IMG/VR virus record: IMGVR_UViG_3300032312_001422
Location: 128,001 to 192,000 of that record
From: a virus
Lineage: Duplodnaviria > Caudoviricetes
Length of the DNA stretch: 64,000 nt
Strand: one strand, 5' to 3'
Each line of letters starts with the position of its first letter. Within the stretch, counting starts at the first letter, position 1. Positions 7,429 to 26,960 of the stretch are shown here, piece after piece. Made by a program: the position numbers and the translations under genes. The notes under the pieces are model-generated. The model was not told the DNA's origin. It made no database searches and saw nothing but the letters and a program-made list of their open reading frames with translations.

Positions 7429-7512
7429 GTAAGATAGTATAATATACAGAGTCGCTGACTTAATCAGCATGTAGAGCAAGTGTTGGCTCAAAGCAACACA
7501 CATTGGAGAGTT
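7415..7512 (+). promoter_or_regulatory. DNA polymerase promoter and structured leader
   Basis: TTGCTA-17-TATAAT (7415-7443); hairpins 7454-7468 and 7480-7499; GGAGAG SD before ATG 7513. Confidence 0.65.
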
Positions 7513-10173
7513 ATGAGTTATATAGATGCATTGTTTGATCGCGACAAAGATCGCATACACGTGGTAGAACGTGTGAATGGAGAACGTGTTTACACAGAGT
7601 ATCCGGCCAACTATGTATTCTACTACGACGATCCCAGAGGTAAATTTCGCACAATCTTTGACACACCTGTCACACGCTTTGCCACACGCAACGGCAAAGA
7701 GTTCCACAAAGAACAACGAGTCAATGGCAACAAACGCTTGTGGGAAAGTGATATCAATCCCATCTTCCGTTGCCTTGAAGAAAACTACCTAGGCGTAGAC
7801 TCGCCCAAACTACAAACAGCCTTTTTTGATATTGAAGTGGACTTTGATCCACTGAGAGGCTATTCAAAACCCGAAGATCCCTTTAATGCTATCACTGCTA
7901 TTTCAGTCTACATGGACTGGATGGACAAGATGGTCACGCTGGTGGTTCCACCCAAGAGTTATTCGTGGGAAACCGCACAGGAGATTTGCAACCAATACGA
8001 CAACTGCTTCTTGTTTGAACGAGAAGAGGACATGCTGAACACATTCCTTGACTTGATTGAAGATGCAGATATCCTGTCAGGTTGGAACAGTGAAGGCTTT
8101 GATATTCCCTACACTACCATGCGTATCACCAGAGTGCTGAGCAAGGATGACACACGTAGGTTATGCCTGTGGGGACAACTGCCCAAGCAACGTGTGTTTG
8201 AACGATTTGGTGCAGAGAACTTGACATTTGACCTGTTGGGTCGTGTTCACCTAGACTACATGCAACTGTATCGCAAGTACACTTATGAAGAACGTCACAG
8301 TTACAGTTTAGATGCCATTGCCGAATACGAACTGGGTGAACGCAAAACACAGTACGAAGGTACCCTGGATCAACTGTACAACAAAGACTTTCCCAAGTTT
8401 ATTGACTATAATCGTCAAGACACAATGATTCTTGCCAAGATGGATAAAAAGTTACGCTTTTTAGATCTTGCCAATGAACTGGCACACGATAATACTGTAT
8501 TGCTACAAACCACCATGGGTGCTGTGGCAGTTACAGAACAGGCCATTATCAATGAAGCTCACAGTCGTGGGCTAGTAGTACCTAACAGGAGAAGTAGAGA
8601 TGATCAAGGAGACACGCAAGCGGCAGGTGCCTACGTTGCTTACCCCAAAAAAGGCATGCACGAATACATCGGGGCAATCGACCTCAACAGTCTCTACCCG
8701 TCAGCGATCCGTGCTCTTAACATGGGGCCAGAAACAGTTGTTGGTCAGTTAAGAACTGTAATGACCGACCACTACATCCAAGAAAAGATGACCAGTGGAA
8801 GCAGTTTTGCTGATGCATGGGAAAACATGTTTGGTACCTTGGAGTATCAAGCGGTAATGAACATGGAGCCGGGCACAGAGATTACTGTAGACTGGGAAAG
8901 TGGTGGTTCGGATGTGATGAGTGCCGCAGATGTATGGCGCTTGATATTTGACAGTCGTCAGCCATGGACACTCAGTGCCAACGGCACAATATTTAAATAT
9001 AACGTCAAGGGCATTATCCCTGGCTTATTGGAGAGATGGTATGCTGAACGTAAGGAAATGCAAGCTAAAAAGAAAACCGCAACATCTGAGGAAGATGAAG
9101 CGTTCTGGGACAAAAGACAGCTGGTCAAAAAGATCAACCTTAACTCACTTTACGGTGCGATCCTCAACCCGGGTTGCCGTTTCTTTGACCAACGCATTGG
9201 CCAGAGTACGACGCTTACGGGCCGTATTATTGCCAAGCACATGGACGCACACGTTAACGAAGCTATTACCGGCCAGTATGACCACGTGGGGGCGAGCATC
9301 ATCTACGGCGACACGGACTCGGTCTATTTCTCAGCCTGGCCGCAAATCAAAGAGGAAGTAGCCGCGGGTCGCATGGAGTGGAACAGAGAAATCTGTGTAC
9401 AGTTATATGATACCATTGCCGAAAGTGTAAATGCCAGTTTCCCTGCGTTTATGGAACGTGCTTGTCATTGTCCAAGAGAGATGGGTAGTATTATTGCAGC
9501 CGGTCGTGAACTTATTGCATCAAAAGGCCTGTTTATCAAGAAGAAACGCTATGGTGTATTAATATTCGACATGGAAGGTGTGCGACTAGACACACACGGC
9601 AAGCCAGGCAAGATGAAGGCTATGGGCTTGGACTTGAAGCGGTCAGATACACCCAAGGTGGTACAGGACTTCTTGAGCGAATTGTTGATGGATGTGCTGA
9701 CAGGCGCCGGTCGAGAAGCAGTGATTGAAAAAGTCAAAGAATTTAAATTAATTTTTGCTACTAGGCCAGCCTGGGAAAAAGGTACTCCCAAACGTGTCAA
9801 CAACTTGACCAAGTATGCAGCCGAAGAAGCACGTCTAGGCAAAGCCAACATGCCCGGTCACGTTAGAGCTGCAATGAACTGGAACAACCTAAAGCGTATG
9901 CATGGCGACAACTACTCTACAACCATTGTAGATGGCATGAAAACCATTGTGTGTAAACTCAAAGACAATCCAGTAGGATATACTTCAGTTGGTTATCCCA
10001 CTGATGAAACTCATATTCCGCAATGGTTCAAAGACTTGCCGTTCGACGACAGCACAATGGAATCAACTATTGTAGATCAAAAAGTAGAAAACTTGTTGGG
10101 TGTACTAGAGTGGCGCATTGCCGAAAGCACAGATATTAAAACAACATTTGATGATTTGTTTAGTTTTGAATAA
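7513..10173 (+). CDS. polB: family B DNA polymerase with 3'-5' exonuclease domain
   Basis: FFDIE, GWNSEGFD, YNRQD (exonuclease); DLNSLYPS, KINLNSLYG, YGDTDS (polymerase); start chosen by SD. Confidence 0.97.
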   Translation: MSYIDALFDRDKDRIHVVERVNGERVYTEYPANYVFYYDDPRGKFRTIFDTPVTRFATRNGKEFHKEQRVNGNKRLWESDINPIFRCLEENYLGVDSPKLQTAFFDIEVDFDPLRGYSKPEDPFNAITAISVYMDWMDKMVTLVVPPKSYSWETAQEICNQYDNCFLFEREEDMLNTFLDLIEDADILSGWNSEGFDIPYTTMRITRVLSKDDTRRLCLWGQLPKQRVFERFGAENLTFDLLGRVHLDYMQLYRKYTYEERHSYSLDAIAEYELGERKTQYEGTLDQLYNKDFPKFIDYNRQDTMILAKMDKKLRFLDLANELAHDNTVLLQTTMGAVAVTEQAIINEAHSRGLVVPNRRSRDDQGDTQAAGAYVAYPKKGMHEYIGAIDLNSLYPSAIRALNMGPETVVGQLRTVMTDHYIQEKMTSGSSFADAWENMFGTLEYQAVMNMEPGTEITVDWESGGSDVMSAADVWRLIFDSRQPWTLSANGTIFKYNVKGIIPGLLERWYAERKEMQAKKKTATSEEDEAFWDKRQLVKKINLNSLYGAILNPGCRFFDQRIGQSTTLTGRIIAKHMDAHVNEAITGQYDHVGASIIYGDTDSVYFSAWPQIKEEVAAGRMEWNREICVQLYDTIAESVNASFPAFMERACHCPREMGSIIAAGRELIASKGLFIKKKRYGVLIFDMEGVRLDTHGKPGKMKAMGLDLKRSDTPKVVQDFLSELLMDVLTGAGREAVIEKVKEFKLIFATRPAWEKGTPKRVNNLTKYAAEEARLGKANMPGHVRAAMNWNNLKRMHGDNYSTTIVDGMKTIVCKLKDNPVGYTSVGYPTDETHIPQWFKDLPFDDSTMESTIVDQKVENLLGVLEWRIAESTDIKTTFDDLFSFE

Positions 10174-11123
10174 TGAAAAAATTAACTGAACTTGTTCGAA
10201 TTCGAGAACTGTTAAAAACAGAGTACACACCTCAGGATATCACGTTGGGTATCAACAGTTTGGAAAATCGCATCAGTGCCATTGCTAACGAAACGCCCTT
10301 GACAGATGTGCAGTTTGAAATTAATCAATTGACCGGAGATTTTGCTAGATTACATTCGGATTTACAATTTAGTCAATCGCGATTTGATCTTATCATTGAT
10401 AAAATAAATCAACAGATACAGGCAGAGGCAGCTCATTTGTTTACCAACAACTACGAATTAGAATTACGTGTAGAAGAAGAAGCAGTAAGCAATATACGAA
10501 AAGTTCGTGTGCTGGAGTTATCCGATTCTTTACAAACAGAAATCCATAATCGCATACAATTAAATACCAATTGGAAATATCCAGCACTGGAAATTGGGTG
10601 TCGAGATGGTGAATGGACCAAACACATTGTGGCCGCTGATCCTTTGTACGTTACTGATCACTACAGAGATTTTTTACAATCCACTGCTGGCCAGTTTCCA
10701 GATGAGTATCAACGCAGACTAAGACCATATCTTGTCAAAGATACCAATTTTGATGTGTTACCTCAGGGACAATTTGGATTTGTATTTTGTTGGAATTTTC
10801 TAAACTATCGCAGTCTTGATACCATAAAAGAATATCTTAAATCAGTCAAGGAACTGTTACGACCCGGCGGTGTGTTTATGTTCAGCTACAACAATGGTGA
10901 CATAACCGAATCAGCCGGTTATGCAGAAGGCTTTTGGATGACTTACATGCCAAAAAGCATGTTGATACCCATGTGCGAAAGTTTAGGTTTTGAAGTGCAC
11001 CATGACAGAGACGTTCGTGGCCAAGGCACTACAGTCAGCTGGCTTGAACTCAAACGACCTGGCACATTAGAAACGGTCAAAGCACATCAGGTATTAGGCG
11101 AAATAAAAAGACGAGACCATTGA
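10173..11123 (+). CDS. class I SAM-dependent methyltransferase with N-terminal coiled coil
   Basis: LEIGCRDG motif I; FGFVFCWNFLNY; LLRPGGVFMF. Confidence 0.78.
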   Translation: MKKLTELVRIRELLKTEYTPQDITLGINSLENRISAIANETPLTDVQFEINQLTGDFARLHSDLQFSQSRFDLIIDKINQQIQAEAAHLFTNNYELELRVEEEAVSNIRKVRVLELSDSLQTEIHNRIQLNTNWKYPALEIGCRDGEWTKHIVAADPLYVTDHYRDFLQSTAGQFPDEYQRRLRPYLVKDTNFDVLPQGQFGFVFCWNFLNYRSLDTIKEYLKSVKELLRPGGVFMFSYNNGDITESAGYAEGFWMTYMPKSMLIPMCESLGFEVHHDRDVRGQGTTVSWLELKRPGTLETVKAHQVLGEIKRRDH

Positions 11124-11148
11124 CTTTTTCTAAATACTACTATACAAT
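11120..11148 (+). promoter_or_regulatory. sigma70-type promoter with nested CTAAATA
   Basis: TTGACT-17-TACAAT; GGAG before ATG 11173. Confidence 0.7.
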
Positions 11149-11172
11149 TACTACACTTACGGAGAATAAAAA

Positions 11173-11907
11173 ATGTTTGATCACTTAAAAGATATTGTAC
11201 AACACACTTATGGCTTGGGCGTTATTAGCATGATTAAGGTCACAGGCGATGCTAACGGCACAGCCATTAATGCTTTTGACCAAGCTACCAAAACAGTGGT
11301 GCTGAATGCAGAATTCAAAGCACCCGTTGCCGAATTCCAAGGCGTGTTTGGTATGCCAAACTTGGATAGACTTAATACTATCCTTAACATTCCTGAATAC
11401 AAGGAAGGCGCAAAAATCACAGTAGCAAGTCAGAAAGATGCAGAAGGCACAGATGTTCCTTCCAGCATCAATTTTGAAAACAAGGGTGGCGACTTTAAAA
11501 ACTCATATCGCTTTATGAGCACAGCAGTCATTAACGATCAATTGAAGAACGTTAAGATGAAACCAGTCAAGTGGGGTGTGGAAATAGCACCCACAGCACT
11601 GAGCATCCAGAAACTAAAGTTTCAAGCAATGGCACACTCAGATGCTACAACATTTTCAAGCAAAACAGAAAATGGCGAACTAAAGTTTTTCTTTGGTGAA
11701 GCCAGCAGTCACGCAGGGTCATTTACGTTTGCTACAACCTCAGGTTCATTGAGCAAACAGTTGAACTGGCCAGTGGCTGTAGTTAACAGTATTTTGAGCT
11801 TGCCCGGAGACAAGACATTCAAGATCTCAGATGATGGTGTTGCTGAAATTACTGTAGACTCTGGTCTAGCTGTTTATCACTACATGTTGCCAGCACAAAC
11901 CAAGTAA
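11173..11907 (+). CDS. probable sliding clamp (gp45-like processivity factor)
   Basis: 244 aa with beta-rich pattern, near the DNA polymerase; no diagnostic motif, so inferred from size and context. Confidence 0.55.
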   Translation: MFDHLKDIVQHTYGLGVISMIKVTGDANGTAINAFDQATKTVVLNAEFKAPVAEFQGVFGMPNLDRLNTILNIPEYKEGAKITVASQKDAEGTDVPSSINFENKGGDFKNSYRFMSTAVINDQLKNVKMKPVKWGVEIAPTALSIQKLKFQAMAHSDATTFSSKTENGELKFFFGEASSHAGSFTFATTSGSLSKQLNWPVAVVNSILSLPGDKTFKISDDGVAEITVDSGLAVYHYMLPAQTK

Positions 11908-12557
11908 TGAAAGAAGCAGTTAGACACGGATACTTAGCAGGCGGTGGATTGCGTAGCCCAGATAAAAAACACTTTTATTTGAACATTCCCAAAAACGCCA
12001 GCACGTACCTGTCTAACACACTACTGGCCAATGGATGGCATTATCATACCTTGGGTGATGACAGTGACAAAATTACTCATGCCATGGTTGTGTTAAAAGA
12101 TCCAGTAGATCGTTGGGTCAGCGGAGTTGGTACATATATTAGCAGTTGGATATTAGGGCCAGGTTACGGCAGTGATCACTTTGTTGAAAATTATAATAAT
12201 TTATCCGAACGGCTGTTGTTTGAAACCTTGATACTGGATGACCATACTACACCACAGATTGCATATATCAACCAACTTGAACAACTATTACCAGGCGTAC
12301 CTGTTACATATTTTAAATTAGATCAATTTGTTGTTGACAATATGAGTGTTTGTATATCACAGTTATTGGACGTGCCCGCAGTTGAGTCAAACATTTCTGA
12401 GGATCATTATGATCAGCAAGTCGTAGTTAATTTTATAAAAAAACGAATACTAGCCGACTTTACATTAAAGGCCAAGGTAGTTGCTAGATTTCAAGAGGAC
12501 TACGATTTTATTAACCAAACACAATTTTACTATGAGCCAAGACAACTTAACCGCTAA
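11907..12557 (+). CDS. sulfotransferase family protein
   Basis: 5'-PSB-like NIPKNASTY and 3'-PB-like KDPVDRWVSG. Confidence 0.72.
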   Translation: MKEAVRHGYLAGGGLRSPDKKHFYLNIPKNASTYLSNTLLANGWHYHTLGDDSDKITHAMVVLKDPVDRWVSGVGTYISSWILGPGYGSDHFVENYNNLSERLLFETLILDDHTTPQIAYINQLEQLLPGVPVTYFKLDQFVVDNMSVCISQLLDVPAVESNISEDHYDQQVVVNFIKKRILADFTLKAKVVARFQEDYDFINQTQFYYEPRQLNR

Positions 12558-14097
12558 ACAATCAGACTATGCTGTGTTCCTTCCGGCCATCTCGGGCTTC
12601 TATGCCACATTCATAGGTAAGCAACGTGATCCGGTAGCAGGTCCTTATGTAGACCCGGCTAGATTCCCACAGGGCATAACAGATATGGAACAACTCAACT
12701 GGTTGAATGACCAGAAGGGCATGTTCCCATACAAGTGGTCGCTTTACTCCGGTGGCCACGCAAACCTTGATCTCGCCAAGCAGGACTGGAGCGAGGACAT
12801 GGTTCGCAATCGCGACCCAAACACACTAGTACTAGGTGACTCTGGTGGATTCCAGATTGCCAAAGGACTATGGGAAGGCGATTGGAAGGCCAATTCAGGA
12901 TGTCCCAAAGCACAGAAAAAACGAGAACAGGTTTTGGCGTGGCTTGACGGCATTGCTGACTACGGTATGACCCTTGATATTCCAACCTGGGTTGCACTAG
13001 ATAAAGAAGCAGGTAAGAAATGTGGTATTAGTACGCACCAGGAAGCTGTTGATGCTACCAAATATAACAATGATTACTTTATGGACAATCGTAAAGGTAT
13101 CAAGAACGGTGGCGTTAAGATTTTAAATGTATTACAAGGCGCCAACCACATTGAGGCTGACGATTGGTACGAAACCATGAAACACTATTGTGATCCTGTG
13201 CAACATCCAGACACACACTTTAACGGATGGGCCATGGGTGGACAAAACATGTGTGACGTGGAATTGATTCTCAGACGTTTAGTTACTCTACGTTATGACA
13301 ACTTGTTACAAGAAGGTGTTCACGATTGGATGCATTTCTTGGGCACAAGCAAACTAGAGTGGGCAGTACTGTTAACTGTGATACAACGAAACGTTAGAAA
13401 GTATGTAAATCCTAGTTTCACTATCAGCTTTGATTGTGCTAGTCCATTCCTTGCTACAGCCAACGGACAGGTATACTTTGAAAATGTGTTTCCCGACAAC
13501 GGCAAGTGGTCATACAGGATGGCTCCTAGTGCAGATGACAAAAAGTACGCAACAGACACACGCAAGTGGAGTGACGGAGTGGTAGCGGATGGCAAGTATC
13601 CACGTTGGGAAGACAGTCCACTTAGTAACTTGTTTAAAATGAAAGACATTTGCTACTACAAACCAGGCGATGTAAACAAGAATGGCAAAGAAGGCAAAAC
13701 GTCATGGGATAGTTTTAGTTACGCATTGTTAATGGGTCATAATGTATGGATGCATTTGACAGCGGTACAAGAAGCCAATCGTAGATTTGATGCCGGTGCT
13801 CATCCTGCCATGATGCGTAGCTCAGGCCCGGGTGGTGAATATTTTGAAGACATCGTAGAAGCAATCTTTGCTGCCCCAGATAAAGCAACATCGATGGAGA
13901 TCATTGATATGTATAAAGGAGATACCGGGTATTGGTGTGAAATTGTTGGTACTAGAGGATTCAAAGGCAAGAAAGCTGTTAACGGTAGTGCCAATTTTAG
14001 TAAATTGTTTTATTTTGAAGATGATGTAGAAATTGTAGAAGAAACAACAGAACAAGAATTTGATCAAACTAAACTAGACGCACTGGAGGCAGAATGA
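12532..14097 (+). CDS. TGT-fold guanine transglycosylase, DpdA-like
   Basis: GDSGGFQI, MTLDIP, NVLQG, GWAMGG, MHFLG, SFDCASP match the TGT barrel; no CxCxxC zinc site. Confidence 0.85.
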   Translation: MSQDNLTAKQSDYAVFLPAISGFYATFIGKQRDPVAGPYVDPARFPQGITDMEQLNWLNDQKGMFPYKWSLYSGGHANLDLAKQDWSEDMVRNRDPNTLVLGDSGGFQIAKGLWEGDWKANSGCPKAQKKREQVLAWLDGIADYGMTLDIPTWVALDKEAGKKCGISTHQEAVDATKYNNDYFMDNRKGIKNGGVKILNVLQGANHIEADDWYETMKHYCDPVQHPDTHFNGWAMGGQNMCDVELILRRLVTLRYDNLLQEGVHDWMHFLGTSKLEWAVLLTVIQRNVRKYVNPSFTISFDCASPFLATANGQVYFENVFPDNGKWSYRMAPSADDKKYATDTRKWSDGVVADGKYPRWEDSPLSNLFKMKDICYYKPGDVNKNGKEGKTSWDSFSYALLMGHNVWMHLTAVQEANRRFDAGAHPAMMRSSGPGGEYFEDIVEAIFAAPDKATSMEIIDMYKGDTGYWCEIVGTRGFKGKKAVNGSANFSKLFYFEDDVEIVEETTEQEFDQTKLDALEAE

Positions 14098-14609
14098 ACA
14101 GAGCAGGACACGAACAAGTAAATTTCTTTGTTGGCCGGGAAGTAGAGCATAGCCCGGCATTTGGACATAAAACTTTATTTGTAGTTGGTATTCAGTCTAC
14201 TGATGTTATTCTAAACACGGCCAAGAATAACAACTGCTCACACGTTTATTTTGGCGCAAACCAAAGTTTTCCTAATCCCAAAACCAACGATGGCGACACA
14301 TGGCGTGAATGGGAAGGTATGATTACCGGATGTTTACAACGAGGGATATTGTGTACCTTGGATTTGGACGTATCCAGTGTAGAAGGACTAGTTGAAGGTT
14401 GTTTAATTGAGTACAACAACTTTATCCCGATGATTTCGGTGAAATTGCCCTCTTTACAACTATTAGGATATAATGCTACAATAAAGCTCGACGACAAAGA
14501 CTTTGCGGCATCCAACCCCGGAGTATGGTGTCATCAGTTACATGATTTAAAGGACCGTAAAGTATTTACGGATTGGTCGAAGTACACACAAGACGAAGTT
14601 ATAAAATGA
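14094..14609 (+). CDS. hypothetical protein coupled to the TGT-like gene
   Basis: ATGA overlaps at both ends. Confidence 0.8.
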   Translation: MNRAGHEQVNFFVGREVEHSPAFGHKTLFVVGIQSTDVILNTAKNNNCSHVYFGANQSFPNPKTNDGDTWREWEGMITGCLQRGILCTLDLDVSSVEGLVEGCLIEYNNFIPMISVKLPSLQLLGYNATIKLDDKDFAASNPGVWCHQLHDLKDRKVFTDWSKYTQDEVIK

Positions 14610-15070
14610 ACCAAGAACAAAGAGAAGTAGTTGAAAGAATTAAAACAGCCGCACATCGCCAGATCTGGGTCACCTTCCAAAAGGAAGGAATTCATTGCTA
14701 TCCGGCTGCAGGCACGGATCCGGCACTAGCAACAGGAGATGAATACGATGTATCGTTTCTTGCTAATCCTCATCGCCATATTTTCCATTTCAGGGTGTCA
14801 ATTGATGTCTTCCACAACGACAGAGATATTGAGTTCATCCAGTTCAAACGCTGGCTCGAGAATCTTTACAGTGGGACCGGTCCCTTTAATCAAGATCGAG
14901 TATTAGAATTAAACTATAAGAGTTGCGAAATGATCGCCGACGACTTGTATGTACAAATTGCTGCACGTTATCCAAATCGTGCTGTCTCAATTGAAGTGTC
15001 CGAGGACGGTGAAAACGGATGCTTAATCAATTATAACCTTACCCGTCCAAGTCAATCAATTGTAATCTAA
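14606..15070 (+). CDS. QueD-like T-fold protein (DpdL-type signature)
   Basis: LANPHRHIF = LxxxHRHxF; SCEMIA; VSEDGENG C-terminus typical of the PTPS fold. Confidence 0.75.
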   Translation: MNQEQREVVERIKTAAHRQIWVTFQKEGIHCYPAAGTDPALATGDEYDVSFLANPHRHIFHFRVSIDVFHNDRDIEFIQFKRWLENLYSGTGPFNQDRVLELNYKSCEMIADDLYVQIAARYPNRAVSIEVSEDGENGCLINYNLTRPSQSIVI

Positions 15071-15081
15071 GGAGTATTAAA

Positions 15082-15342
15082 ATGGCCCAAGAATGGCTAA
15101 AGAAGTATCTTCGTTTCAAACCCGAAGTAGTAACCATCTTTGAAGATTTAGAACGCTATGAGCGTTTTTGTCGAGACTACGGTTATCCGTTTGACGAAAA
15201 AAATCTTTACAACGAACGCACTCCTTATGGTGAGTATATGAAGATGGTGCGTGGTCGCGAGCCTTGGGATCAGTGGCGTACTCCCAAGCGTGATCGTAAC
15301 ACGTTTAAACCACGTGATACAAATTGGAAACCCAGGGACTGA
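15082..15342 (+). CDS. hypothetical protein
   Basis: AAGGAG SD; 86 aa. Confidence 0.75.
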   Translation: MAQEWLKKYLRFKPEVVTIFEDLERYERFCRDYGYPFDEKNLYNERTPYGEYMKMVRGREPWDQWRTPKRDRNTFKPRDTNWKPRD

Positions 15343-15356
15343 TGAGGCGTTATAAA

Positions 15357-16547
15357 ATGCGTAAATTATGGTACATGGGGTTGGAGCCCTACAAAGCAAG
15401 ATACACTTTGCAACTACAAGAGTGGAATCGTAGTGTATTTGAACGTCGCGGCATTGATTATGAAATTGTTGAAGGCGAAACACTTTCAAATGACCAAGCC
15501 ATTGTTACAGGACAAGTGCTAGACGCACATGGTCGTACATACTTTGGTATGAGTCAGTTGATGAATCTTGTACGCAAGATGAAACAAGGAGAAGTTACCA
15601 ATGAAGATGTTATCTACTTTGAAGACATGTTTCAACCCGGTATCGAGAGCTTGCCTTACATTATGGATCAAATCGATTCTGCTCATCGTCCTCGCATTGC
15701 CGTTCGTTGCCTTGCACAAAGTATTGACCCCGATGATTTTGTTCATGTGTGGGGTATGCAGAAGTGGATGGGACTTTATGAAAAAATGGTGGATAGTTTT
15801 GCGGATATTATTTTAGCCAGCAACGAAGAGATGGCCATGCACATGAAGGTGGCCGGATGGGAAGGCAACATCTATAATATTTCAGGATTGGCCTTTGGTA
15901 AAGCAGAAGTACGTGGCCGTGTGCCAGGAGAACTAAAGCCATTTCAGGATCGTCGGTATCGTGTGGGATTTGCTGCACGTTGGGATCAAGAAAAGCAACC
16001 AGACTTTTACATGGACTTTATCGAAGCCTGGCATGACAAGTACAAAGATAATTTTCCAATGAATACAGTAGAGTTCTGTATCTTTTCAGGTGCCAAACTA
16101 AAATCAAACAACGACAGCTACATGGCTCGTACAAGAGATTTACAGGCTCGTGGTTTACTAACAGTTTATGAGGACTTGGAAAAAAATGATTACTATGCTT
16201 TGCTTAATAATACTCGTGTATTGTTCAATTGTGCTCTTCAAGACTGGGTCAGCAACACAGTATCGGAGGCAGACACACTCGGCGCTAATGTGCTTTATCC
16301 TGCTTATCGCAGTTTCCCTGAAACTTTTGCTAACGATCATACACGCTTATACGTCCCTTGGTCAATAGACGATGCAATGACCAAGTTGTGGGGTGCGTTG
16401 CAATCACCAAGTCCTAACATGGGCAAGATCAGTGACTGGACAGATGGTTGTATTGATCGGGTTGTAGATATTTTAGAAGGTAAAGGAGAGCAGTGGCGTC
16501 GTATGAGCACTGATTATCGTAAACATACTCATGAAAGCAAATATTAA
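15357..16547 (+). CDS. GT-B fold glycosyltransferase
   Basis: VGFAARWDQEKQPD; QDWVSNTVSEA..LGANVLYP resembles the GT-B donor-binding motif. Confidence 0.8.
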   Translation: MRKLWYMGLEPYKARYTLQLQEWNRSVFERRGIDYEIVEGETLSNDQAIVTGQVLDAHGRTYFGMSQLMNLVRKMKQGEVTNEDVIYFEDMFQPGIESLPYIMDQIDSAHRPRIAVRCLAQSIDPDDFVHVWGMQKWMGLYEKMVDSFADIILASNEEMAMHMKVAGWEGNIYNISGLAFGKAEVRGRVPGELKPFQDRRYRVGFAARWDQEKQPDFYMDFIEAWHDKYKDNFPMNTVEFCIFSGAKLKSNNDSYMARTRDLQARGLLTVYEDLEKNDYYALLNNTRVLFNCALQDWVSNTVSEADTLGANVLYPAYRSFPETFANDHTRLYVPWSIDDAMTKLWGALQSPSPNMGKISDWTDGCIDRVVDILEGKGEQWRRMSTDYRKHTHESKY

Positions 16548-16548
16548 A

Positions 16549-17754
16549 ATGACAACCAAAGATATTACCGCAGAACAATTGGTAGCTGTACTCAAATTTA
16601 CACCACGCACATACAAGATCAGTATGTGGGGCTACGGTGGCGAAAAAGTCATGGGCACAGTTAGTCGTGAAGTTTACGATTATTGCGTAGAAAACTGTGT
16701 TGATCTACAGGACATTGCCTGGGGCGACGAAGATCGTGTAGAAGAAATGGGTCTTGACATTGACATGTTGCCATTTACTCCGGGTTCGTGGTATGAATGC
16801 GATGACATGGCACATACCAACGGTGTGAGCCGTAATGCGGGTACACTACAAATCGAAGATGAAAACGGCAATGTTGTTTATGAGCGTAGTCTAGAAGATT
16901 GTGACGGCGGAAGCGATGATAGTCCAGAATGGTCCTGCTTTGATGAAGCATGGATTGGTAGCAAGCCTGCTGGTACTGTGGTATTTGTTGGATGCAGCAA
17001 TGAAAAAGGCACGTTCTTCGAAGGCGAAATTGAATTGACTGAACCGTTTGATATTACCAAACTGACCTTGCAATACGACGAAGTTGATGGTGAAGAACTG
17101 GTCAACTGTGTGCAGTACGATGGTGAGGACATTGACAACTGGGGCGGCAGTACTGACGGCAAGAGTAGTGACTTTGGTATGTATGTTGTGATAGACAGCA
17201 ACACATGGGAAACCTATAGTCCAGAAGAAAAAGACTGGGGTCACCCTGAGTATGGCACTAGCCCAAGCGACTGGGAGAAGTCTGAAACGTTTAAATTTGC
17301 CAAACAGAAACCTACCATTCCAGGTTATTACAATGCAGTATGGAAGCACTACGGAACTACCACCGGGTCGTTGTACTGGGATGGTACGGAGTTTGGCGAG
17401 TGGGAATACGGTAAGTTTAAACCACAAGCAGGTGTTGAGTCTTGGTCGGGCTATAACTGGGACACTAGCTCATGGGTCAATCAACCGCCTGAACCACCCA
17501 ATGTCATTTGCGATAACAAAGAGTGTGGATGGATTGGCAAGAGTGATGAACGCATCACTGATGAAGAGTATAATGATCATTGTCCTAACTGTGAAGGCAC
17601 AGACTTCTCATGGATTGACTATGATCCTGATACCAAAGCGGGTCGTGCCAACCGAGAAAAATTCTGTAAAGAATGGGATCCTGCGGTTGCAATGGATCGT
17701 ATTGTAGCATCCGTGCCCGAGGACGTTGCAACAAAGGCCAAATGGCCATTTTAA
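16549..17754 (+). CDS. acidic hypothetical protein with C-terminal zinc ribbon
   Basis: D/E-rich; CDNKEC...CPNC. Confidence 0.75.
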   Translation: MTTKDITAEQLVAVLKFTPRTYKISMWGYGGEKVMGTVSREVYDYCVENCVDLQDIAWGDEDRVEEMGLDIDMLPFTPGSWYECDDMAHTNGVSRNAGTLQIEDENGNVVYERSLEDCDGGSDDSPEWSCFDEAWIGSKPAGTVVFVGCSNEKGTFFEGEIELTEPFDITKLTLQYDEVDGEELVNCVQYDGEDIDNWGGSTDGKSSDFGMYVVIDSNTWETYSPEEKDWGHPEYGTSPSDWEKSETFKFAKQKPTIPGYYNAVWKHYGTTTGSLYWDGTEFGEWEYGKFKPQAGVESWSGYNWDTSSWVNQPPEPPNVICDNKECGWIGKSDERITDEEYNDHCPNCEGTDFSWIDYDPDTKAGRANREKFCKEWDPAVAMDRIVASVPEDVATKAKWPF

Positions 17755-18740: not shown

Positions 18741-18940
18741 CAACCTTTACCACCGATGACATTGAAAGTTTAAAGACTGAATGGTTTCCATTTGATTTAG
18801 ATCCTGTCCACGAAGGCGAATACGAAGTAATGAGCTCTGCATGGCCGTGGGTGCATCGTGCAGGGTGGACCAAAAAAAACGGCTGGGGAGATTTACAAAT
18901 TGACCAATGGCGTGGATTAAAGGTACGGATTCCAGAATGA
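18737..18940 (+). CDS. hypothetical protein
   Basis: ATGA coupling at both ends. Confidence 0.7.
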   Translation: MTTFTTDDIESLKTEWFPFDLDPVHEGEYEVMSSAWPWVHRAGWTKKNGWGDLQIDQWRGLKVRIPE

Positions 18941-19914
18941 CTAGAAAAGTTGTAGTAACAGGTGGTTGTGGTTACATTGGTAGCCATGTAGCACGAGCAT
19001 TTAAACAGCAAGGCGATCATGTTACTATAATTGATCGAGTCCGACGTGATCACACACTTAAAGATATTGATGGACACTTTATCGGAGACTTTGTCAGTGA
19101 CGGAGCATTGAGTGTACTTATACACGCTGAACCTGATGTGATTGTGCATTGTGCTGGCACCAGCTTGGTAGGACCCAGCATGACCAACCCCGGCGAGTAT
19201 TGGGACAATAACGTGGTAAAGTTTATTAAATTATTAGATGTGGTTAAGAATTTACCCAAGCGACCACTGATCTTGTTCAGTTCAAGTGCCAGTGTGTATG
19301 GCGAACCTAACCGTTTACCAATTCCTGAAACACACAGGATAGACCCAATCAGCCCGTACGGCAATACCAAAGCCACTTGTGAACGCATATTAAAAGACTA
19401 TTACCTAGCTCATGCCGTTCCCAGTGTGTGTTTTAGATTCTTTAATGCTGCAGGTGCTGAGCCTTTTAATTATGACCTTGGCCAAGAACCCAACGCCACA
19501 CACATTGTGGCTCGAGTGCTAGAATCCATGTTGCGTAAAGAAGAATTTGGCCTAAATGGCACAGATTACAAAACACGTGATGGCACTTGTGTCAGAGACT
19601 ACATACACGTATGGGATCTAGCACAGGCACATATTATGGCTGCTGATCGAGCAGGAGAGGCCACCGGATGGGTTGGTGCTCAACAGATCAATCTTGGTAC
19701 CGGCGGTGGTATTAGCAATCAAGAAATTGTCGACTATGTCAAACAACATTACGATCCTGATTTCCGCACAGTTGTGAATTCACCCAGATTGGGAGATCCA
19801 GCTGAATTGGTAGCACAAGCGGATCGAGCCAATGAATGGTTAAATTGGACTGCTGAACACAGCGACATAAGTACTATTATAGACTCAGCTTATAAGTGGT
19901 ATACTCGGGTCTAA
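18937..19914 (+). CDS. galE: UDP-glucose 4-epimerase
   Basis: GGCGYIGSH, FSSSASVYG, YGNTK, RFFNAAGA, RDYIHV. Confidence 0.92.
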   Translation: MTRKVVVTGGCGYIGSHVARAFKQQGDHVTIIDRVRRDHTLKDIDGHFIGDFVSDGALSVLIHAEPDVIVHCAGTSLVGPSMTNPGEYWDNNVVKFIKLLDVVKNLPKRPLILFSSSASVYGEPNRLPIPETHRIDPISPYGNTKATCERILKDYYLAHAVPSVCFRFFNAAGAEPFNYDLGQEPNATHIVARVLESMLRKEEFGLNGTDYKTRDGTCVRDYIHVWDLAQAHIMAADRAGEATGWVGAQQINLGTGGGISNQEIVDYVKQHYDPDFRTVVNSPRLGDPAELVAQADRANEWLNWTAEHSDISTIIDSAYKWYTRV

Positions 19915-19930: not shown

Positions 19931-20959
19931 ATGTATCAATACGCAGAACTTGTCCACTGGATGAGAAATCAAGACACCATGAAGATTCTGCCTGCACAGG
20001 TAGACATAGATCTAACCAATGTATGCAATCAAGATTGTTACTATTGCAACTCTGCCGACTTCCGTGCAGAAAAACCTGTGCAAAAGAAATACACAGAATA
20101 CATTGAGTTACTAGACAAGTTGGCTGGTTGGCGAGCACACACGCCTAACAGCTATGGCACAACACACACTATTACCTATCCCGGTGGTGGCGAACCCACT
20201 GTGTTGGTCAGTTACGAAAAGGTTATTGAGCATACTCTAGACCTAGGATTCCTGACCAGTTTAACCACAAATGGCAGTAACTTAGATAGCCTGCTGGATA
20301 CTGTTCATGTAGACAAGTTACGCAAGATGGCCTGGATTGGTATTGATATTGATGCAGGTACAGAACCTTTATATGAACAAATACGACGCAGTTTAACTGC
20401 TCGAAGTTTGTTTACCAAAGTATGCGACAATGCACGTGGCTTGATCGAAGCTGGCGTTAATGTGGACTTTAAGTGTTTGATTAATCCCTTAAATGACACA
20501 GAAGAAGCAATGAATGACCTGTTTCAGTTAGTTGCCGGCCTTGGCGGGCGTATGATATACTTCCGTCCTGTTATCATTGACAGTCAAGCATATCCCATCA
20601 CAGAGGCAACCATTGCTAGACTAGATCGATATAGCAAACTGTACAAACTACCTTACTGGGCCAATCAAAATAAAACATTGCCACGCAACTACAAGAAGTG
20701 TCACCAGATGTTTCACTTTCCTGTGTTTTGTGCTGATGGAAAAATTTATATCTGTTGTGAAGGCAAAGGCAATCCACAATTTGAATTGACCAATTGGGAC
20801 TCGGGTGACTTCCGCGATAGCTGGCTAAATGAACGTCATTATGACATATACAATAAAACCCGTGTGGAGTTTTGTGCTCCGTGCAGGCCAAATATCAGCA
20901 ACATACAAATACAAAACATTTTAGACAATCCCAAAAAAATAGAGACCTTATACCTATGA
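19931..20959 (+). CDS. radical SAM protein with C-terminal Twitch/SPASM domain
   Basis: CNQDCYYC, GGGEP; C-terminal KC...ADG..YICC...CAPC. Confidence 0.88.
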   Translation: MYQYAELVHWMRNQDTMKILPAQVDIDLTNVCNQDCYYCNSADFRAEKPVQKKYTEYIELLDKLAGWRAHTPNSYGTTHTITYPGGGEPTVLVSYEKVIEHTLDLGFLTSLTTNGSNLDSLLDTVHVDKLRKMAWIGIDIDAGTEPLYEQIRRSLTARSLFTKVCDNARGLIEAGVNVDFKCLINPLNDTEEAMNDLFQLVAGLGGRMIYFRPVIIDSQAYPITEATIARLDRYSKLYKLPYWANQNKTLPRNYKKCHQMFHFPVFCADGKIYICCEGKGNPQFELTNWDSGDFRDSWLNERHYDIYNKTRVEFCAPCRPNISNIQIQNILDNPKKIETLYL

Positions 20960-21318
20960 ATATCACATTTCCTGTTATTGAATTATTTGATCGCCTGGCC
21001 ATTGCTGACGTTAAGTTTAAACGCACTGGAGGTGCCAATGCTGAAGAACTGACTTGGTACATGAATCAAGCAATAGCATATGACATTGAAAAAATTGAAG
21101 ATCTATATACAAATCTTGTGGGCATACACAACGAAATATGGGAATTGGAATCACTGCTCAAAACAGGACGTGAGCAAGAATTAGGACTAGAAGAAATTGG
21201 CCGTCGTGCCATTGCCATTAGAGATCACAACAACAAACGTATTGCCATTAAAAATGCCATTGCTGAACGACTTGAATGCCTAGTACGTGAAATAAAACAA
21301 GATCACCTAAGCGAATAG
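20956..21318 (+). CDS. helical hypothetical protein
   Basis: ATGA-coupled start MNITFPVIELFDRL. Confidence 0.7.
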   Translation: MNITFPVIELFDRLAIADVKFKRTGGANAEELTWYMNQAIAYDIEKIEDLYTNLVGIHNEIWELESLLKTGREQELGLEEIGRRAIAIRDHNNKRIAIKNAIAERLECLVREIKQDHLSE

Positions 21319-22392
21319 TTTGTCAAGCATGGTTCTTGAAACCTTACCGGCGGCATTCTTAGGTACTTCGTCAACTTCTTTGAGCACAGTTGGATAACAG
21401 TATTGCCCCATAGACACTAATACTGTTTTAATTTGCGTTTTATTGTACGGGCCACTGTATACACATTTTACAGAGTCTGTGCCAAATACTGCCAGGTCTT
21501 TAAGATCAGGAAACACAGCATATAGTTTGTTTTCTAGGCTTAAAGGATCTAATTTGTAGCCGCGAACATTAATACGATCTACACTACGTCCTAGAATTCG
21601 AAAATAGCCTGCTTCATCTTGTTCGGCCAAATCTCCGGTGTCGAGCCAATCCGAATTAGCCACACTAGGACCTCGTATCAGTAGTTTACTTTGTTCAATA
21701 CGTGCTTCTACTCCATCAGGTAAACCCACTGTACCTATGCGTTGTTCTCCATCCAGCGGATTGGTCAAACAGTGACTACATGATTCTGTCATGCCAAAAC
21801 TTTCAACAATAGGCACACCAAACTGTTCTTTCATAGCAGAATACAGTTGCGGAGGTAAAGCAGAGCTAGCACTACGAACAAATCGTAAACTATCAAACCT
21901 TTGTTTCATCAGGGCTTTTAATATATCTGGAATACCAGTAATAAATGTAGGACTGTATTTGGATACTTCTTGTAATCGTCCAATGGGCAAAAATGTTGTT
22001 TCCATACCAATCATGCGACTCATCCAATACATCATTTGGCCGTGTGCATGCCATAGGCTCATTACACCAACATAACGATCATTGGCAGTAAGATTATAGG
22101 ATTTGATTATTTGACCACATACATAATTGACTTGCTGTTCGGTAAAACTGTAAAATTTACTATCGCCAGTTGTGCCTGAAGTATACCAGTAGACTTTTTC
22201 TCCAGGGTACTCAGCACCATCCCGCTCTTGTATGTTGTCGGCCGTGACCAATAGGCTCCAATCCGAATTGTTTAACAGGTATTGGTTTCGGTCAGCCGGC
22301 GCTGCAGGATTCAATACCATAATGCTATAATTTTTATCATATAGTGGTATGTAGTCCCAGGGGTTGGGTACACAAATGACAGCTCTTTTCAT
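21307..22392 (-). CDS. ANL-superfamily AMP-dependent acyl-CoA synthetase/ligase
   Basis: YTSGTTG, ESFGMTE, TGDL, GR..DRINVRG. Confidence 0.9.
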   Translation of the reverse strand: MKRAVICVPNPWDYIPLYDKNYSIMVLNPAAPADRNQYLLNNSDWSLLVTADNIQERDGAEYPGEKVYWYTSGTTGDSKFYSFTEQQVNYVCGQIIKSYNLTANDRYVGVMSLWHAHGQMMYWMSRMIGMETTFLPIGRLQEVSKYSPTFITGIPDILKALMKQRFDSLRFVRSASSALPPQLYSAMKEQFGVPIVESFGMTESCSHCLTNPLDGEQRIGTVGLPDGVEARIEQSKLLIRGPSVANSDWLDTGDLAEQDEAGYFRILGRSVDRINVRGYKLDPLSLENKLYAVFPDLKDLAVFGTDSVKCVYSGPYNKTQIKTVLVSMGQYCYPTVLKEVDEVPKNAAGKVSRTMLDKLFA

Positions 22393-23459: not shown

Positions 23460-24302
23460 ATGTCCAAAAATAAAGATAAAAACAAAGATAAAAATAAAAA
23501 TAAAGATCTACTATTTGATGCAATCAAAGCTACACAATACGTAAATGAAGCACCGTATCATCCCGGATACGAAGATGCTGTAATGCACATGAGCGATAAA
23601 GGTTACGAAGAAGGCAAGTATCTAGCCGATGCTATCCGATTTAATATGAAGCGTGATAAAAAACGTTTCTGGGCTGGTGACAACATCAGTGAATACTTGC
23701 ATGAAGGTGATAAAGAACGACTAATCGATGAAGCTACAGAAGCTTTTGAACGAGTGTTAGATACCTTGCTGATTGATCGTGAGAATGATCCTAACTCAAA
23801 AGGTACAGCACGTCGTTTGGCCAAGATGTATTTTAACGAAATTATGGAGGGCAGATATGCTCCAGCGCCAGATGCAACAGCTTTTCCAAATGATTCAGCG
23901 GATAGATACGAAGGTATGCTTGTGGTTCGTAGCGAACTGCGTTCTATGTGCAGTCACCATCATCAGCCTGTGTCTGGTGTTGCTTACATCGGAATCATTG
24001 CCGCAAATAAACTTATTGGCTTGTCTAAATATACTAGGATCGCTCAGTGGTGTGCTCGTCGTGGCACACTTCAAGAAGAACTATGTAACGACATCGCAAG
24101 AGAAATAATGCGGGCCACTGAATCAGAAAACGTGGGTGTGTATATCCAAGCGGTACACGGGTGCTGTGAGAATCGTGGCATTATGGCACACTCTAGTCTA
24201 ACGCAGACTACTGTGTTGCGTGGTAGTTTTCAAACAGACCCAGGAACCAAAAAAGAGTTCATGGACAATATTAAACTACAACAGGACTTTGCTCCTCGTT
24301 AA
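23460..24302 (+). CDS. folE: GTP cyclohydrolase I
   Basis: SMCSHHHQP, IGLSK, LQEE, HGCCENRG. Confidence 0.95.
   Translation: MSKNKDKNKDKNKNKDLLFDAIKATQYVNEAPYHPGYEDAVMHMSDKGYEEGKYLADAIRFNMKRDKKRFWAGDNISEYLHEGDKERLIDEATEAFERVLDTLLIDRENDPNSKGTARRLAKMYFNEIMEGRYAPAPDATAFPNDSADRYEGMLVVRSELRSMCSHHHQPVSGVAYIGIIAANKLIGLSKYTRIAQWCARRGTLQEELCNDIAREIMRATESENVGVYIQAVHGCCENRGIMAHSSLTQTTVLRGSFQTDPGTKKEFMDNIKLQQDFAPR
23466..23507 (+). repeat. short AAAAAYAAAGAT-type tandem repeat encoding KNKDKNKDKNKNKD
   Basis: Read directly at the folE 5' end. Confidence 0.7.
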
Positions 24303-24316
24303 GGAACATAACTACA

Positions 24317-24979
24317 ATGTTAGAAACCATATGTGAAGTATTAGAAGATGCGTACAAACGCAATTGGATTACCAGCCGTGATGGCAATGTGAGTATTCGT
24401 CATCACGACCGCGATCATTTCTACATCACTCCTAGTGGTGTGCGTAAACAGACACTACAACCTGATCAGTTTAAGAAAATTATAATTAAACCTCCAATGA
24501 CTTGGAACGAACCAGGCACAGGTTTATTAGCAGAACGTTGGGGGTGGAAAGAAGACACCTACACCGATATTAGTTCTAAACTACGACCCAGTGGAGAGAT
24601 TCCTTTGCATTTTGGTCTACAGAAACAGATGGGACAACACTTGGGAGAAGTCCGAGTAGTGGTACATGTGCATCCTACCTACTGCATTGCGGCCATGCAT
24701 GCCGGCATTGATTTGAGTACTGTGAGTGCGGCATTTCCAGAACTCAATCGATATACTCGGGTAGCACCCAATGTACCGGATGTTCCGCCAATCAGTCAAG
24801 AGCTTGCAGATAAATGTTTTGAAAAGCTAGGCCTAGATGATCAAGGTAACATTGCCTATGACATTGTGGGCATCAAAGGGCATGGAGTAGTTGCTATTGA
24901 TACAAGTCCGTGGCGTGCCTATGAGCACATAGAGCGATTAGAACACATTTGCAAGATTGTATTGGCCTCTAAAACATGA
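24317..24979 (+). CDS. class II aldolase/adducin family protein
   Basis: DGNVS, ITPSG, VVHVHPTY, KGHGVV. Confidence 0.88.
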   Translation: MLETICEVLEDAYKRNWITSRDGNVSIRHHDRDHFYITPSGVRKQTLQPDQFKKIIIKPPMTWNEPGTGLLAERWGWKEDTYTDISSKLRPSGEIPLHFGLQKQMGQHLGEVRVVVHVHPTYCIAAMHAGIDLSTVSAAFPELNRYTRVAPNVPDVPPISQELADKCFEKLGLDDQGNIAYDIVGIKGHGVVAIDTSPWRAYEHIERLEHICKIVLASKT

Positions 24980-25529: not shown

Positions 25530-25615
25530 AATTAGGTGAACTAATCTCTATGGTTATTTTTGGAATTATCTTGGTTGCATTTATTTTTTATCAATATGGA
25601 CATCATGTAAAATGA
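25526..25615 (+). CDS. 29-aa hydrophobic microprotein
   Basis: MKLGELISMVIFGIILVAFIFYQYGHHVK; ATGA-coupled at both ends. Confidence 0.55.
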   Translation: MKLGELISMVIFGIILVAFIFYQYGHHVK

Positions 25616-26166
25616 GTAAAGTATATTACAAAGAATCAACAATTCGATCTTGGGTACACGATATTATCCGTGCTGTGAACGCAGATAATTGGCGCCCCGA
25701 TTATATTGTAGGTCTAACTCGCGGTGGACTAGTTCCTGCTGTGATGCTGAGTCATTACTTGGATGTACCAATGCATGCTCTTAAAGTAAGCCTACGTGAC
25801 GGCGATCATGGACCAGAAAGCAATGCATGGATGGCCGAAGATGCATTCGGTTGGATTGAAGGCGGGTATCGAGGGTTGGGTGGTGACGGTGCGTTTGATT
25901 TTACTATGCATGCTAAAAACATTCTTATAGTAGATGATATCAATGATACCGGCGCTACACTAAACTGGATTCGCAAAGATTGGCAAAGCAGTTGCTTACC
26001 CGATAACTCACGTTGGGAAAATGTATTTGGTAATAACGTTCGCTTTGCTGTATTAATCAATAACGAAGCCAGCGAGTTCACGGACGTGGACTATGTGGGC
26101 ATGTCAATAAACAAACTGGAAGAACCCATCTGGTGTGTTTTTCCTTGGGAAGAATGGTGGAGATAA
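25612..26166 (+). CDS. type I purine phosphoribosyltransferase (Gpt-like)
   Basis: GLTRGG; PRPP motif ILIVDDINDTGATL; FPWE. Confidence 0.88.
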   Translation: MSKVYYKESTIRSWVHDIIRAVNADNWRPDYIVGLTRGGLVPAVMLSHYLDVPMHALKVSLRDGDHGPESNAWMAEDAFGWIEGGYRGLGGDGAFDFTMHAKNILIVDDINDTGATLNWIRKDWQSSCLPDNSRWENVFGNNVRFAVLINNEASEFTDVDYVGMSINKLEEPIWCVFPWEEWWR

Positions 26167-26704: not shown

Positions 26705-26960
26705 CGAAATCTTGGACATATTGCAAGAGGAGTGCGGTGAAGTTATTGTTGCTATCAGCAAAATTCGCCGTTTTGGTATTGACAATACGTACAAGGATGG
26801 TGGTACCCAGCGTGAACACCTGGTACAAGAACTAGGCGATGTTACATTGCTAGTAGAATTACTCAAGGCACACAATATTTTTACAGAAGCAGAATTACAT
26901 GAAGCACAAGTGAGAAAAAGTCAAAAATTAACACAATGGTCGAAAATATATGAAGATTAA
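26685..26960 (+). CDS. MazG-like nucleotide pyrophosphohydrolase
   Basis: GTG start after GGAG; LQEECGEV...ELGDV all-alpha NTP-PPase motif. Confidence 0.78.
   Translation: MQSTKVNEILDILQEECGEVIVAISKIRRFGIDNTYKDGGTQREHLVQELGDVTLLVELLKAHNIFTEAELHEAQVRKSQKLTQWSKIYED

Follow-up and report, generated by a model that had tools for sequence, protein, structure and literature searches.

The window analyzed here, a stretch of 64,000 nucleotides that corresponds to bases 128,001-192,000 of the 288,815-bp IMG/VR record IMGVR_UViG_3300032312_001422 (an uncultured jumbo phage; CheckV completeness 80%), carries downstream of its family-B DNA polymerase (PolB) gene a cassette that encodes, among others, an enzyme with a tRNA-guanine transglycosylase (TGT) fold, a DpdL protein and a glycosyltransferase (GT). 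We propose, with a probability of about 0.45, that these genes belong to a DpdL-type 7-deazaguanine DNA modification system in the replication module of the phage, and that this system has been extended by a dedicated GT that glycosylates the deazaguanine. The analysis partly supports the view that the system of the window extends the known phage 7-deazaguanine systems, its distinctive prediction being a sugar-bearing deazaguanine.

The association of the GT gene (15354-16547, + strand, 397 aa) with dpdL (14603-15070, + strand) was analyzed in close relatives of the window and in more distant phages. Of the 80 close relatives examined for gene order, 70 have enough upstream sequence and 65 span PolB to the GT; the transglycosylase, dpdL and GT genes were all present in 70 of the 70 relatives with enough flank. 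An earlier note, made from the letters of the window alone, had named neighborhood conservation of the GT as a test, and such conservation was found beyond the window clade, where the GT lies beside dpdL, and usually also beside the transglycosylase gene, in 12 further lineages. Six of these are cultured phage lineages, in which the GT is found within 0-2 genes of dpdL (about 3.5 kb away in BCSR5, where a protein with a DSGGFQ motif accompanies the GT). The order is gp122 (similar to the 171-aa protein of the window, O171), gp123 (DpdA-like), gp124 (GT), gp125 (DpdL) and QueE in ACP17; GT, 'TGT', DpdL and QueE in X1 and BUDD; and PolB, gp170 (similar to the 244-aa protein of the window, O244), gp168 (DpdA-like), gp167 (GT), gp166 (DpdL), gp164 (epimerase-like), gp163 (a purine phosphoribosyltransferase, PRTase) and QueE in PA5oct and ten sister records. 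In Phosso it is PolB, a clamp-annotated O244 homologue, a 'glycosylase', DpdL, a 'glycosyltransferase', FolE and QueE, and in BUCT-ZZ01 it is QueE, PRTase, QueD, FolE, a second GT, DpdA-like, DpdL and GT. A metagenomic sample contributed seven divergent GT lineages (about 29-33% identity to the window GT); in six of them dpdL lay no more than 2 genes from the GT, and the seventh, a 5.5-kb contig, had no recognizable dpdL. Most of these metagenomic loci also had genes of the 6-pyruvoyltetrahydropterin synthase (PTPS), radical-SAM and GTP-cyclohydrolase families and a DSG-motif protein nearby. The adjacency of GT and dpdL often comes with overlapping stop and start codons.

The association does not hold in the other direction. 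In phiST, RHph_I1_18, Bakedbeans, Ahp1 and D479 dpdL is present, and no member of the GT family was found genome-wide with a profile that recovered the GT in positive-control genomes. Since phiST makes plain 7-deazaguanine-containing DNA (dDG) without a GT, dDG formation does not depend on this enzyme, which probably adds a further group beyond dDG.

Several observations were made at these loci. In the Synechococcus phage BUCT-ZZ01 a second, different GT1/GT4-like protein of 447 aa with a weak Glyco_trans_1_4 match (L002:9010-10353) is encoded between folE and the DpdA-like gene, so that this cluster has two glycosyltransferases. In the Vibrio phage Bakedbeans DpdL is the C-terminal domain (residues ~272-390) of the 383-aa protein gp176 (L093:7254-8405), whose N-terminal 270 residues had no match in the searches tried. 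The Rhizobium phage RHph_I1_18 encodes a macro-domain (Appr-1-p processing) protein directly 3′ of dpdL (L007:10417-11241), and its DpdL is 58% identical to that of the window, although this phage lacks the GT. Uracil-DNA-glycosylase-family genes lie a few kb from the GT-dpdL pair on three small metagenomic phage contigs (L089:7093-7587, L091:9381-10607 and L099:8344-9576); one of the three shows weak similarity to a DNA polymerase A exonuclease domain and is located just upstream of PolA.

None of the seven cassette proteins reached a Pfam or NCBIfam model, and PHROG gave two unnamed families alone, so the assignments that had been made by eye needed other tests. For the GT, taken in the earlier note to be of the GT-B type, these tests were conclusive as to fold. 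The AlphaFold2 (AF2) model, built from a 114-sequence alignment, had a predicted local distance difference test score (pLDDT) of 95.9, and comparison by Foldseek and VIA-align matched it over its full length to retaining GT4 enzymes. The structural neighbors were sucrose-phosphate synthase, MshA, BshA, PimA, glycogen synthase and BA1558, with Z values of 24-27, 316-344 aligned residues and root-mean-square deviations of 3.2-4.2 in the top 15 rows (Z 26 to MshA/BshA), at a sequence identity of 8-14%. The window GT itself matched no Pfam family, including Glycos_transf_1 (PF00534); the family members P0295 and P0340 carry precomputed PF00534 or PF13692 matches, and the family profile hit GT4 chains in the PDB (WlaC, 4e-4; GlgM, 2e-3) through the RxDxEK and LEA segments. 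Residues R16, Q68, D91, G96, D128, E143, R209, K214 and P216 were invariant in the 114-sequence alignment. R209 and K214, together with the near-invariant E305, are candidate donor-site residues and align with the RlDxxK and lEA segments of GT4 enzymes; the second Glu of the E-x7-E motif is not conserved in the family. This family is large: grouping at 90% identity gives no fewer than 8,000 protein clusters, and grouping at 50% still gives 789 representative ones. Its 655-aa homologue P0282, considered as an informative fusion, was discarded, since neither a DpdL nor a DpdA domain was found in it and the added stretch seems to be of low complexity.

Two groups of enzymes offer themselves for comparison with this GT. 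The GT4 enzymes with small acceptors (MshA, BshA, sucrose-phosphate synthase and BGluT, the UDP-glucose:tetrahydrobiopterin glucosyltransferase) share the full-length GT-B fold at Z 24-27 and, it seems, a C-terminal RxDxEK and LEA donor-site pattern, and BGluT acts on a pterin that is made via FolE and a PTPS-family enzyme. The window GT differs from them in its low identity, which leaves it below Pfam Glycos_transf_1, and in its genomic partners, which are QueE and a TGT-fold enzyme and not sepiapterin reductase or thiol-cofactor genes. The T4 alpha- and beta-glucosyltransferases are likewise phage GT-B enzymes encoded among replication genes, and they transfer hexose from a UDP-sugar onto a non-canonical base. 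However, their acceptor is the hydroxymethyl group of a pyrimidine (5-hydroxymethylcytosine), whereas 7-deazaguanine has no hydroxyl, and the viral 'DNA alpha-GT' models are distant from the window GT (ranks 19 and 39, template modeling (TM) score 0.48-0.54), the GT4 small-molecule enzymes reaching Z 26.

The second component is the transglycosylase (12532-14097, + strand; 521 aa from the ATG, in an open reading frame (ORF) that opens at the TTG at 12481), which has thousands of close metagenomic relatives and is 36% identical to PA5oct gp168. Its AF2 model, computed from a 92-sequence alignment that included the PA5oct branch, reached a pLDDT of 86.8, and the top Foldseek matches in the PDB were all Zymomonas mobilis TGT (E 6e-8, probability 1.0, TM score by target 0.55). 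D103 (in DSGGFQ), D149 and D301 (in FDC) were invariant among the 92 homologues. By motif, and not by superposed coordinates, we take them to be the counterparts of TGT D102, D156 and D280, presumably with the roles known from TGT, namely general acid/base, substrate-binding Asp and nucleophile. Hence the TGT fold proposed in the earlier note was confirmed by the model, its matches and the invariant catalytic positions. The same note had described the enzyme as having no Zn site. In the family alignment the canonical zinc motif CxCxxC...H is indeed missing, but the equivalent region has two invariant histidines (H403 and H408) along with D372 and C374, which hardly vary, and a variant metal site at these residues is therefore possible.

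Relationships at the sequence level were harder to detect. The transglycosylase gave no match to Pfam TGT (PF01702) or DpdA (PF23859) even at E 10, its family profile matched nothing in the PDB, and single-sequence phmmer searches of the PDB were of no use for either the transglycosylase or the GT; the language-model feature similarity of the transglycosylase to the TGT and DpdA Pfam families was 0.93 and 0.89. Profile-profile comparison with hhalign related the transglycosylase family to the group of ACP17 gp123, X1 WEM34307 (annotated as queuine tRNA-ribosyltransferase) and the 416-aa protein of BUCT-ZZ01 (90%, E 1.5e-6), so that the enzyme groups with PA5oct gp168, the L088 protein, ACP17 gp123, X1 and BUCT-ZZ01. 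With the group of phiST CGPG_00065, D479, Ahp1 and RHph the probability was 4%; the DpdA3 identity was thus rejected, and the enzyme is labeled DpdA-like. The comparisons with TGT, DpdA and DpdL that the earlier note had envisaged gave a mixed outcome: DpdL is homologous to the founder proteins, whereas the transglycosylase matches neither Pfam TGT nor Pfam DpdA and shows no detectable relation to DpdA3.

DpdL itself (phrog_17812) had been singled out as a QueD-like protein with an LxxxHRHxF motif, and this was corroborated. It carries LANPHRHIF in place of the CxxxHGH motif of QueD, the motif is kept in 11 aligned sequences with single-position substitutions in a few, and tblastn related the protein to ACP17 gp125 (5e-37) and phiST CGPG_00067 (3e-8); a family hidden Markov model was also built. 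CGPG_00067 and ACP17 gp125 are the proteins on which DpdL was defined: it is paralogous to QueD, bears LxxxHRHxF, and occurs where a phage encodes FolE, QueD, QueE and a DpdA and lacks QueC (Cui, Hutinet et al., NAR 2023, PMC10516641). In agreement with the earlier note, DpdL has been proposed, for the founder proteins too, to decarboxylate 7-carboxy-7-deazaguanine (CDG), and Escherichia coli made to co-express the DpdL and DpdA of phiST, or those of ACP17, formed no dDG (PMC10516641). The DNA of phiST contains plain dDG by liquid chromatography-mass spectrometry (LC-MS), and base insertion was assigned to DpdA, after replication (PMC10516641). BLASTP of DpdL against the QueD of the window showed no similarity; the paralogy is visible only at the family or fold level, as published (PMC10516641).

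The genes for the precursor are found 7-11 kb downstream of the cassette, in agreement with the distance of about 10 kb given previously, and all lie on the + strand. GTP cyclohydrolase I (FolE, 23460-24302) matches PF01227 (5.5e-39) and NCBIfam FolE models. QueD, the 6-carboxytetrahydropterin synthase (26255-26704; motif CHLLHGY), matches PF01242 (1e-13) and weakly TIGR03367, and is 52% identical to the QueD of BUCT-ZZ01. QueE, the CDG synthase (26950-27810), is divergent: its five NCBIfam matches are all QueE models below cut-off, and it is 47% identical to the QueE of BUCT-ZZ01 and 31% to that of X1. A purine phosphoribosyltransferase-like protein (25612-26166; PF00156, weak XPRT/HGPRT matches) is encoded in the same region, and PRTase homologues sit inside the 7-deazaguanine clusters of BUCT-ZZ01 and PA5oct too. 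The absence of queC and queF, first noted for the window, extends to the whole record, in which QueC, QueF and Pfam TGT gave no match above cut-off; QueC was also not found in two relatives, of 352 kb and 328 kb (completeness 100% and 92%). One QueC candidate, a PP-loop protein of 368 aa encoded 89 kb upstream, scored 11.5 bits, matched no Pfam family and was rejected; it carries the motif HFSGGADS and is located at L003:1267-2373 (G000 ~38,876-39,982). Rfam searches at gathering thresholds gave no RNA family in the window, so that a preQ1 riboswitch ahead of queD gained no support. Lacking QueC, the pathway ends at CDG. The claim that this phage makes DNA containing either CDG or 7-deazaguanine therefore stands as far as its enzymes go (FolE, QueD, QueE, DpdL and a TGT-fold enzyme, no QueC or QueF). 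Of the two bases, dDG is favored over the CDG form (dCDG) by the presence of DpdL.

The first part of the route that we envisage draws on established knowledge of the enzyme families: FolE, QueD and QueE would convert GTP into CDG, from which DpdL, by its proposed decarboxylase activity, would produce 7-deazaguanine, and the TGT-fold enzyme would then swap guanine in the phage DNA for the deazapurine. The remainder is inferred. The GT4 enzyme would attach a hexose to the deazaguanine, acting either on the free base prior to insertion or later on the DNA. In the window clade the donor is probably UDP-galactose or UDP-glucose, supplied via the adjacent UDP-glucose 4-epimerase GalE, and the sulfotransferase and the S-adenosylmethionine (SAM)-dependent methyltransferase encoded nearby are accessories of a sub-clade and not core parts. 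The virion DNA would thus carry a glycosyl-7-deazaguanine instead of plain dDG. Generalized to all GT-positive DpdL phages (the window clade, which is abundant in the environment, PA5oct, ACP17, X1, Phosso, BCSR5 and BUCT-ZZ01), the prediction is that guanine is replaced by a 7-deazaguanine hexosylated through an unusual N- or C-glycosidic bond, which in the window sub-clade may in addition be methylated or sulfated; we advance this broader version tentatively, at somewhat less than even odds.

Several points weigh against a glycosylated base in DNA, and some of them suit a different assignment, in which the acceptor of the GT is solely a soluble intermediate (for example CDG, 7-deazaguanine, a pterin or a nucleotide of these), the DNA contains plain dDG or dCDG, and the sugar, never reaching the DNA, serves as a transient handle, as a storage or protected form, or as a shield from host enzymes. 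One point is chemical: 7-deazaguanine has no hydroxyl, and an N2- or ring-carbon glycoside, or an acyl linkage as an ester on CDG, would therefore be required. N2-glycosylated 7-deazapurine natural products exist, namely huimycin and dapiramicin, and offer a lead here. In its genomic layout the GT is tied more tightly to dpdL, whose product is predicted to act on the free base, than to the transglycosylase gene; in Phosso the GT is beside dpdL and the DpdA-like gene is about 170 kb distant, which suits a step on a small molecule as much as one on DNA. The closest structural neighbors in the model comparison all act on small acceptors, with tetrahydrobiopterin glucosyltransferases among them at Z 24. 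The invariant residues of the GT N-terminal half are mostly acidic (D91, D128 and E143), and the family is acidic as a whole (median isoelectric point 5.8), but the DpdA-like family is just as acidic, so that charge cannot separate a DNA acceptor from a small-molecule acceptor. To this may be added that the decarboxylase activity of DpdL remains a proposal, and that GalE is not a conserved partner outside the clade. On the other side, phages of the phiST type make dDG without the GT, and a helper role is thus not required; moreover, a transient sugar would need an enzyme that removes it, and none was recognized. We regard a GT confined to soluble metabolites as rather unlikely. As to the acceptor, three points lean towards a free base or a nucleotide, namely the Phosso layout, the small-acceptor neighbors and the acidic N-terminal invariants. 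This is compatible with deazaguanine glycosylation as proposed above: should the transglycosylase insert the glycosylated base, the DNA will carry the sugar, and without such insertion the sugar would be a handle in metabolism. We put the odds of a sugar in the DNA at roughly even.

The order of events could also be different, with the deazapurine entering DNA before or during replication. Here the PRTase would convert the base into a ribonucleotide that is then reduced, phosphorylated and polymerized by PolB, and the TGT-fold enzyme and the GT would be secondary. The location of a PRTase gene inside the cluster in the window, BUCT-ZZ01 and PA5oct would suit such a route, as would the kinase or MazG-type genes that adjoin dpdL in D479, BCSR5 and phiST and the tie of the cluster to PolB in the window, PA5oct, Phosso, ACP17 and X1. 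We nevertheless consider it quite improbable, given that a TGT-fold enzyme with an intact catalytic Asp is conserved throughout and that the PRTase matches are weak and could reflect ordinary purine salvage; the published insertion is by DpdA after replication (PMC10516641). Nor is it likely, and here our estimate is a little lower still, that the GT is unrelated to the deazaguanine pathway and glycosylates a protein, an envelope glycan or another DNA base, being linked merely as an early or replication-module gene. Phage genomes commonly pack unrelated early genes together, but at least 12 lineages with little else in common, small phages of the RecT/ParB type among them, retain the adjacency to dpdL, and the N-terminal half of the GT has several invariant residues. 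Finally, the fold of the transglycosylase is that of an enzyme acting on tRNA, and the cluster might be a queuosine-precursor or tRNA module that modifies phage or host tRNA and not DNA. Against this, homologous clusters are linked to DNA modification (dDG in phiST by mass spectrometry, restriction resistance in PA5oct), the Pfam TGT model gave no match and the canonical Zn motif is missing; a tRNA target is thus very improbable. Our preferred reading remains the DpdL-type system with a GT that acts on deazaguanine.

Among the known systems, that of the Cellulophaga phage phiST (PMC10516641) resembles the window in having FolE, QueD, QueE, DpdL and a TGT-fold enzyme, no QueC, and a location beside a DNA polymerase gene. 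It differs in that its DpdA3 has 259 aa and no detectable relation to the 521-aa enzyme of the window (the 4% given above), and in that no member of the GT family is present in its genome; besides the GT, the window has GalE, O171, an 86-aa basic protein (O86) and the PRTase beyond the phiST set, and in the sub-clade the sulfotransferase and the methyltransferase. The cluster of the Pseudomonas jumbo phage PA5oct (Wroclawvirus), gp170 to gp162, is closer still in layout: it shows the same order from PolB through QueE (gp162), with an 86-aa ORF after DpdL (gp166) and before the epimerase-like gp164. In this case the epimerase-like gene is a 172-aa fragment, and no sulfotransferase or methyltransferase is annotated or was detected in the cluster. 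The DNA of PA5oct resists five restriction enzymes with G in their sites and is attacked by nucleases that recognize modified G, according to PMC12191111, and no report of the chemical identity of its modified G was found in the literature searched.

The published phage 7-deazaguanine bases (dPreQ0, dPreQ1, dADG, dG+, dDG, dCDG, mdPreQ1 and fdPreQ1) all carry small substituents, to our knowledge. In the literature search neither a glycosylated 7-deazaguanine in DNA nor a role for the GT family of the window was found, in line with the earlier note, which knew of no described phage base of this kind. If correct, a hexosylated 7-deazaguanine would be a sugar-bearing purine in natural DNA, of which we know no earlier report. 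From the tight linkage of the GT to dpdL, seen in over a dozen lineages, a further layer of purine hypermodification is predicted, testable in cultured phages that include the therapeutic candidate PA5oct, and the missing GT may explain the failure to reconstitute the modification in E. coli with DpdL and DpdA alone. Such a base would also matter for the evasion of restriction and CRISPR, for defense nucleases and glycosylases that recognize modified G, for artefacts in virome sequencing and for the enzymatic synthesis of glycosylated nucleic acids.

The cassette genes are all on the + strand, downstream of PolB (7480-10173; phrog_262, E 5e-194) and of the SAM methyltransferase (10173-11123). 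The eight ORFs from 11173 to 17754 overlap or are separated by no more than 12 nt, in line with the tight coupling reported at the outset for most cassette genes. A single promoter had been placed at 11120. A sigma70-like match, TTGACT-17-TACAAT (11120-11148, + strand, 10/12), is indeed present in the 49-nt gap after the methyltransferase, the only intergenic gap ahead of the cassette, but such matches are not enriched in the region (22 observed, 22.2 in shuffles), so that this consensus match is suggestive by its position only. Judged by gene order in the 80 close relatives, the core of the clade consists of PolB, O244, the DpdA-like enzyme, DpdL, O86, the GT and GalE.

O244 (11173-11907, + strand; phrog_12062), the core gene that follows PolB, had been described as clamp-like. 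Its homologues include PA5oct gp170 and Phosso XYS97379, and the latter carries a sliding-clamp annotation, on which the description now depends; hhalign against the T4-type clamps of ACP17 and RHph gave 0.3% and the family profile matched nothing in the PDB, and the clamp assignment was not confirmed. O171 (14094-14609, + strand) is a semi-conserved companion, detected in about 35 of the 65 relatives that span PolB to the GT and 31% identical to ACP17 gp122, which has the same cluster position. For its family hhalign found no match in the 'glycosylase' of Phosso or in eight further small ORFs of the clusters, apart from weak values with ORFs beside GT/DpdL on L091 (59%) and L100 (12%). O86 (15082-15342, + strand) lies between dpdL and the GT across the clade.

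The sulfotransferase-like gene (11907-12557, + strand; Sulfotransfer_2 type) had been correctly recognized. Although the window copy has no match itself, 19 of 31 family members match PF03567 (best 4.6e-8), the feature score was 0.95, and the motifs IPKNAS and LKDPVDRWVS supply the positions that bind 3′-phosphoadenosine-5′-phosphosulfate (the 5′-PSB and 3′-PB motifs), with K29, P66 and R69 invariant and S72 nearly invariant; weak profile matches fall on the 3′-PB motif of heparan sulfate sulfotransferases. The gene is found in about 20 of the 65 relatives, always with the methyltransferase and sometimes as 2-3 tandem copies; the methyltransferase occurs without it in 3 of 65, and the converse in 0 of 65. 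The pair looks like an accessory decoration module of a sub-clade, and no sulfotransferase counterpart was found in the clusters of the other lineages examined. Accordingly, of the earlier suggestion that the sugar might be sulfated, the sulfotransferase is real and the sulfation of the base is weakly supported.

In most close relatives GalE (18907-19914, + strand; TIGR01179, 288 bits with a cut-off of 262.3) is the next gene after the GT. The two genes are contiguous wherever two insertions are missing, a BAX-inhibitor-like membrane protein and a very acidic 407-aa protein (16531-17754, + strand; net charge about -48), which has a Cys-rich, zinc-ribbon-like C-terminal motif, CDNKEC...CPNCEG, and is inserted between the GT and GalE in few close relatives only. 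Outside the clade the 172-aa fragment of PA5oct is the exception to the lack of a conserved GalE partner.

Other genes were observed between GalE and the end of the precursor region. GalE is followed by a radical SAM enzyme (19931-20959) whose best NCBIfam match is prokaryotic viperin (5.7e-14, far below cut-off), and then by a 361-aa AMP-binding/acyl-CoA-ligase-like gene (21307-22392, - strand), apparently the only sizeable minus-strand gene between GalE and folE. A class II aldolase/adducin-family protein (24317-24979; MtnB/fuculose-phosphate aldolase-like) starts 15 nt after folE, and we know of no role for it in deazapurine synthesis. Downstream of queE, the region 28018-29477 encodes a DUF2452 protein and a TauE/SafE-family anion permease, a sulfur-compound transporter that may or may not be related to the sulfotransferase-bearing cassette. 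Finally, a 128-aa protein (29464-29850) also recurs in the neighborhood of these clusters: Phosso (XYS97393) and PA5oct (gp160, annotated as a virion structural protein) both encode a homologue a few genes after QueE.

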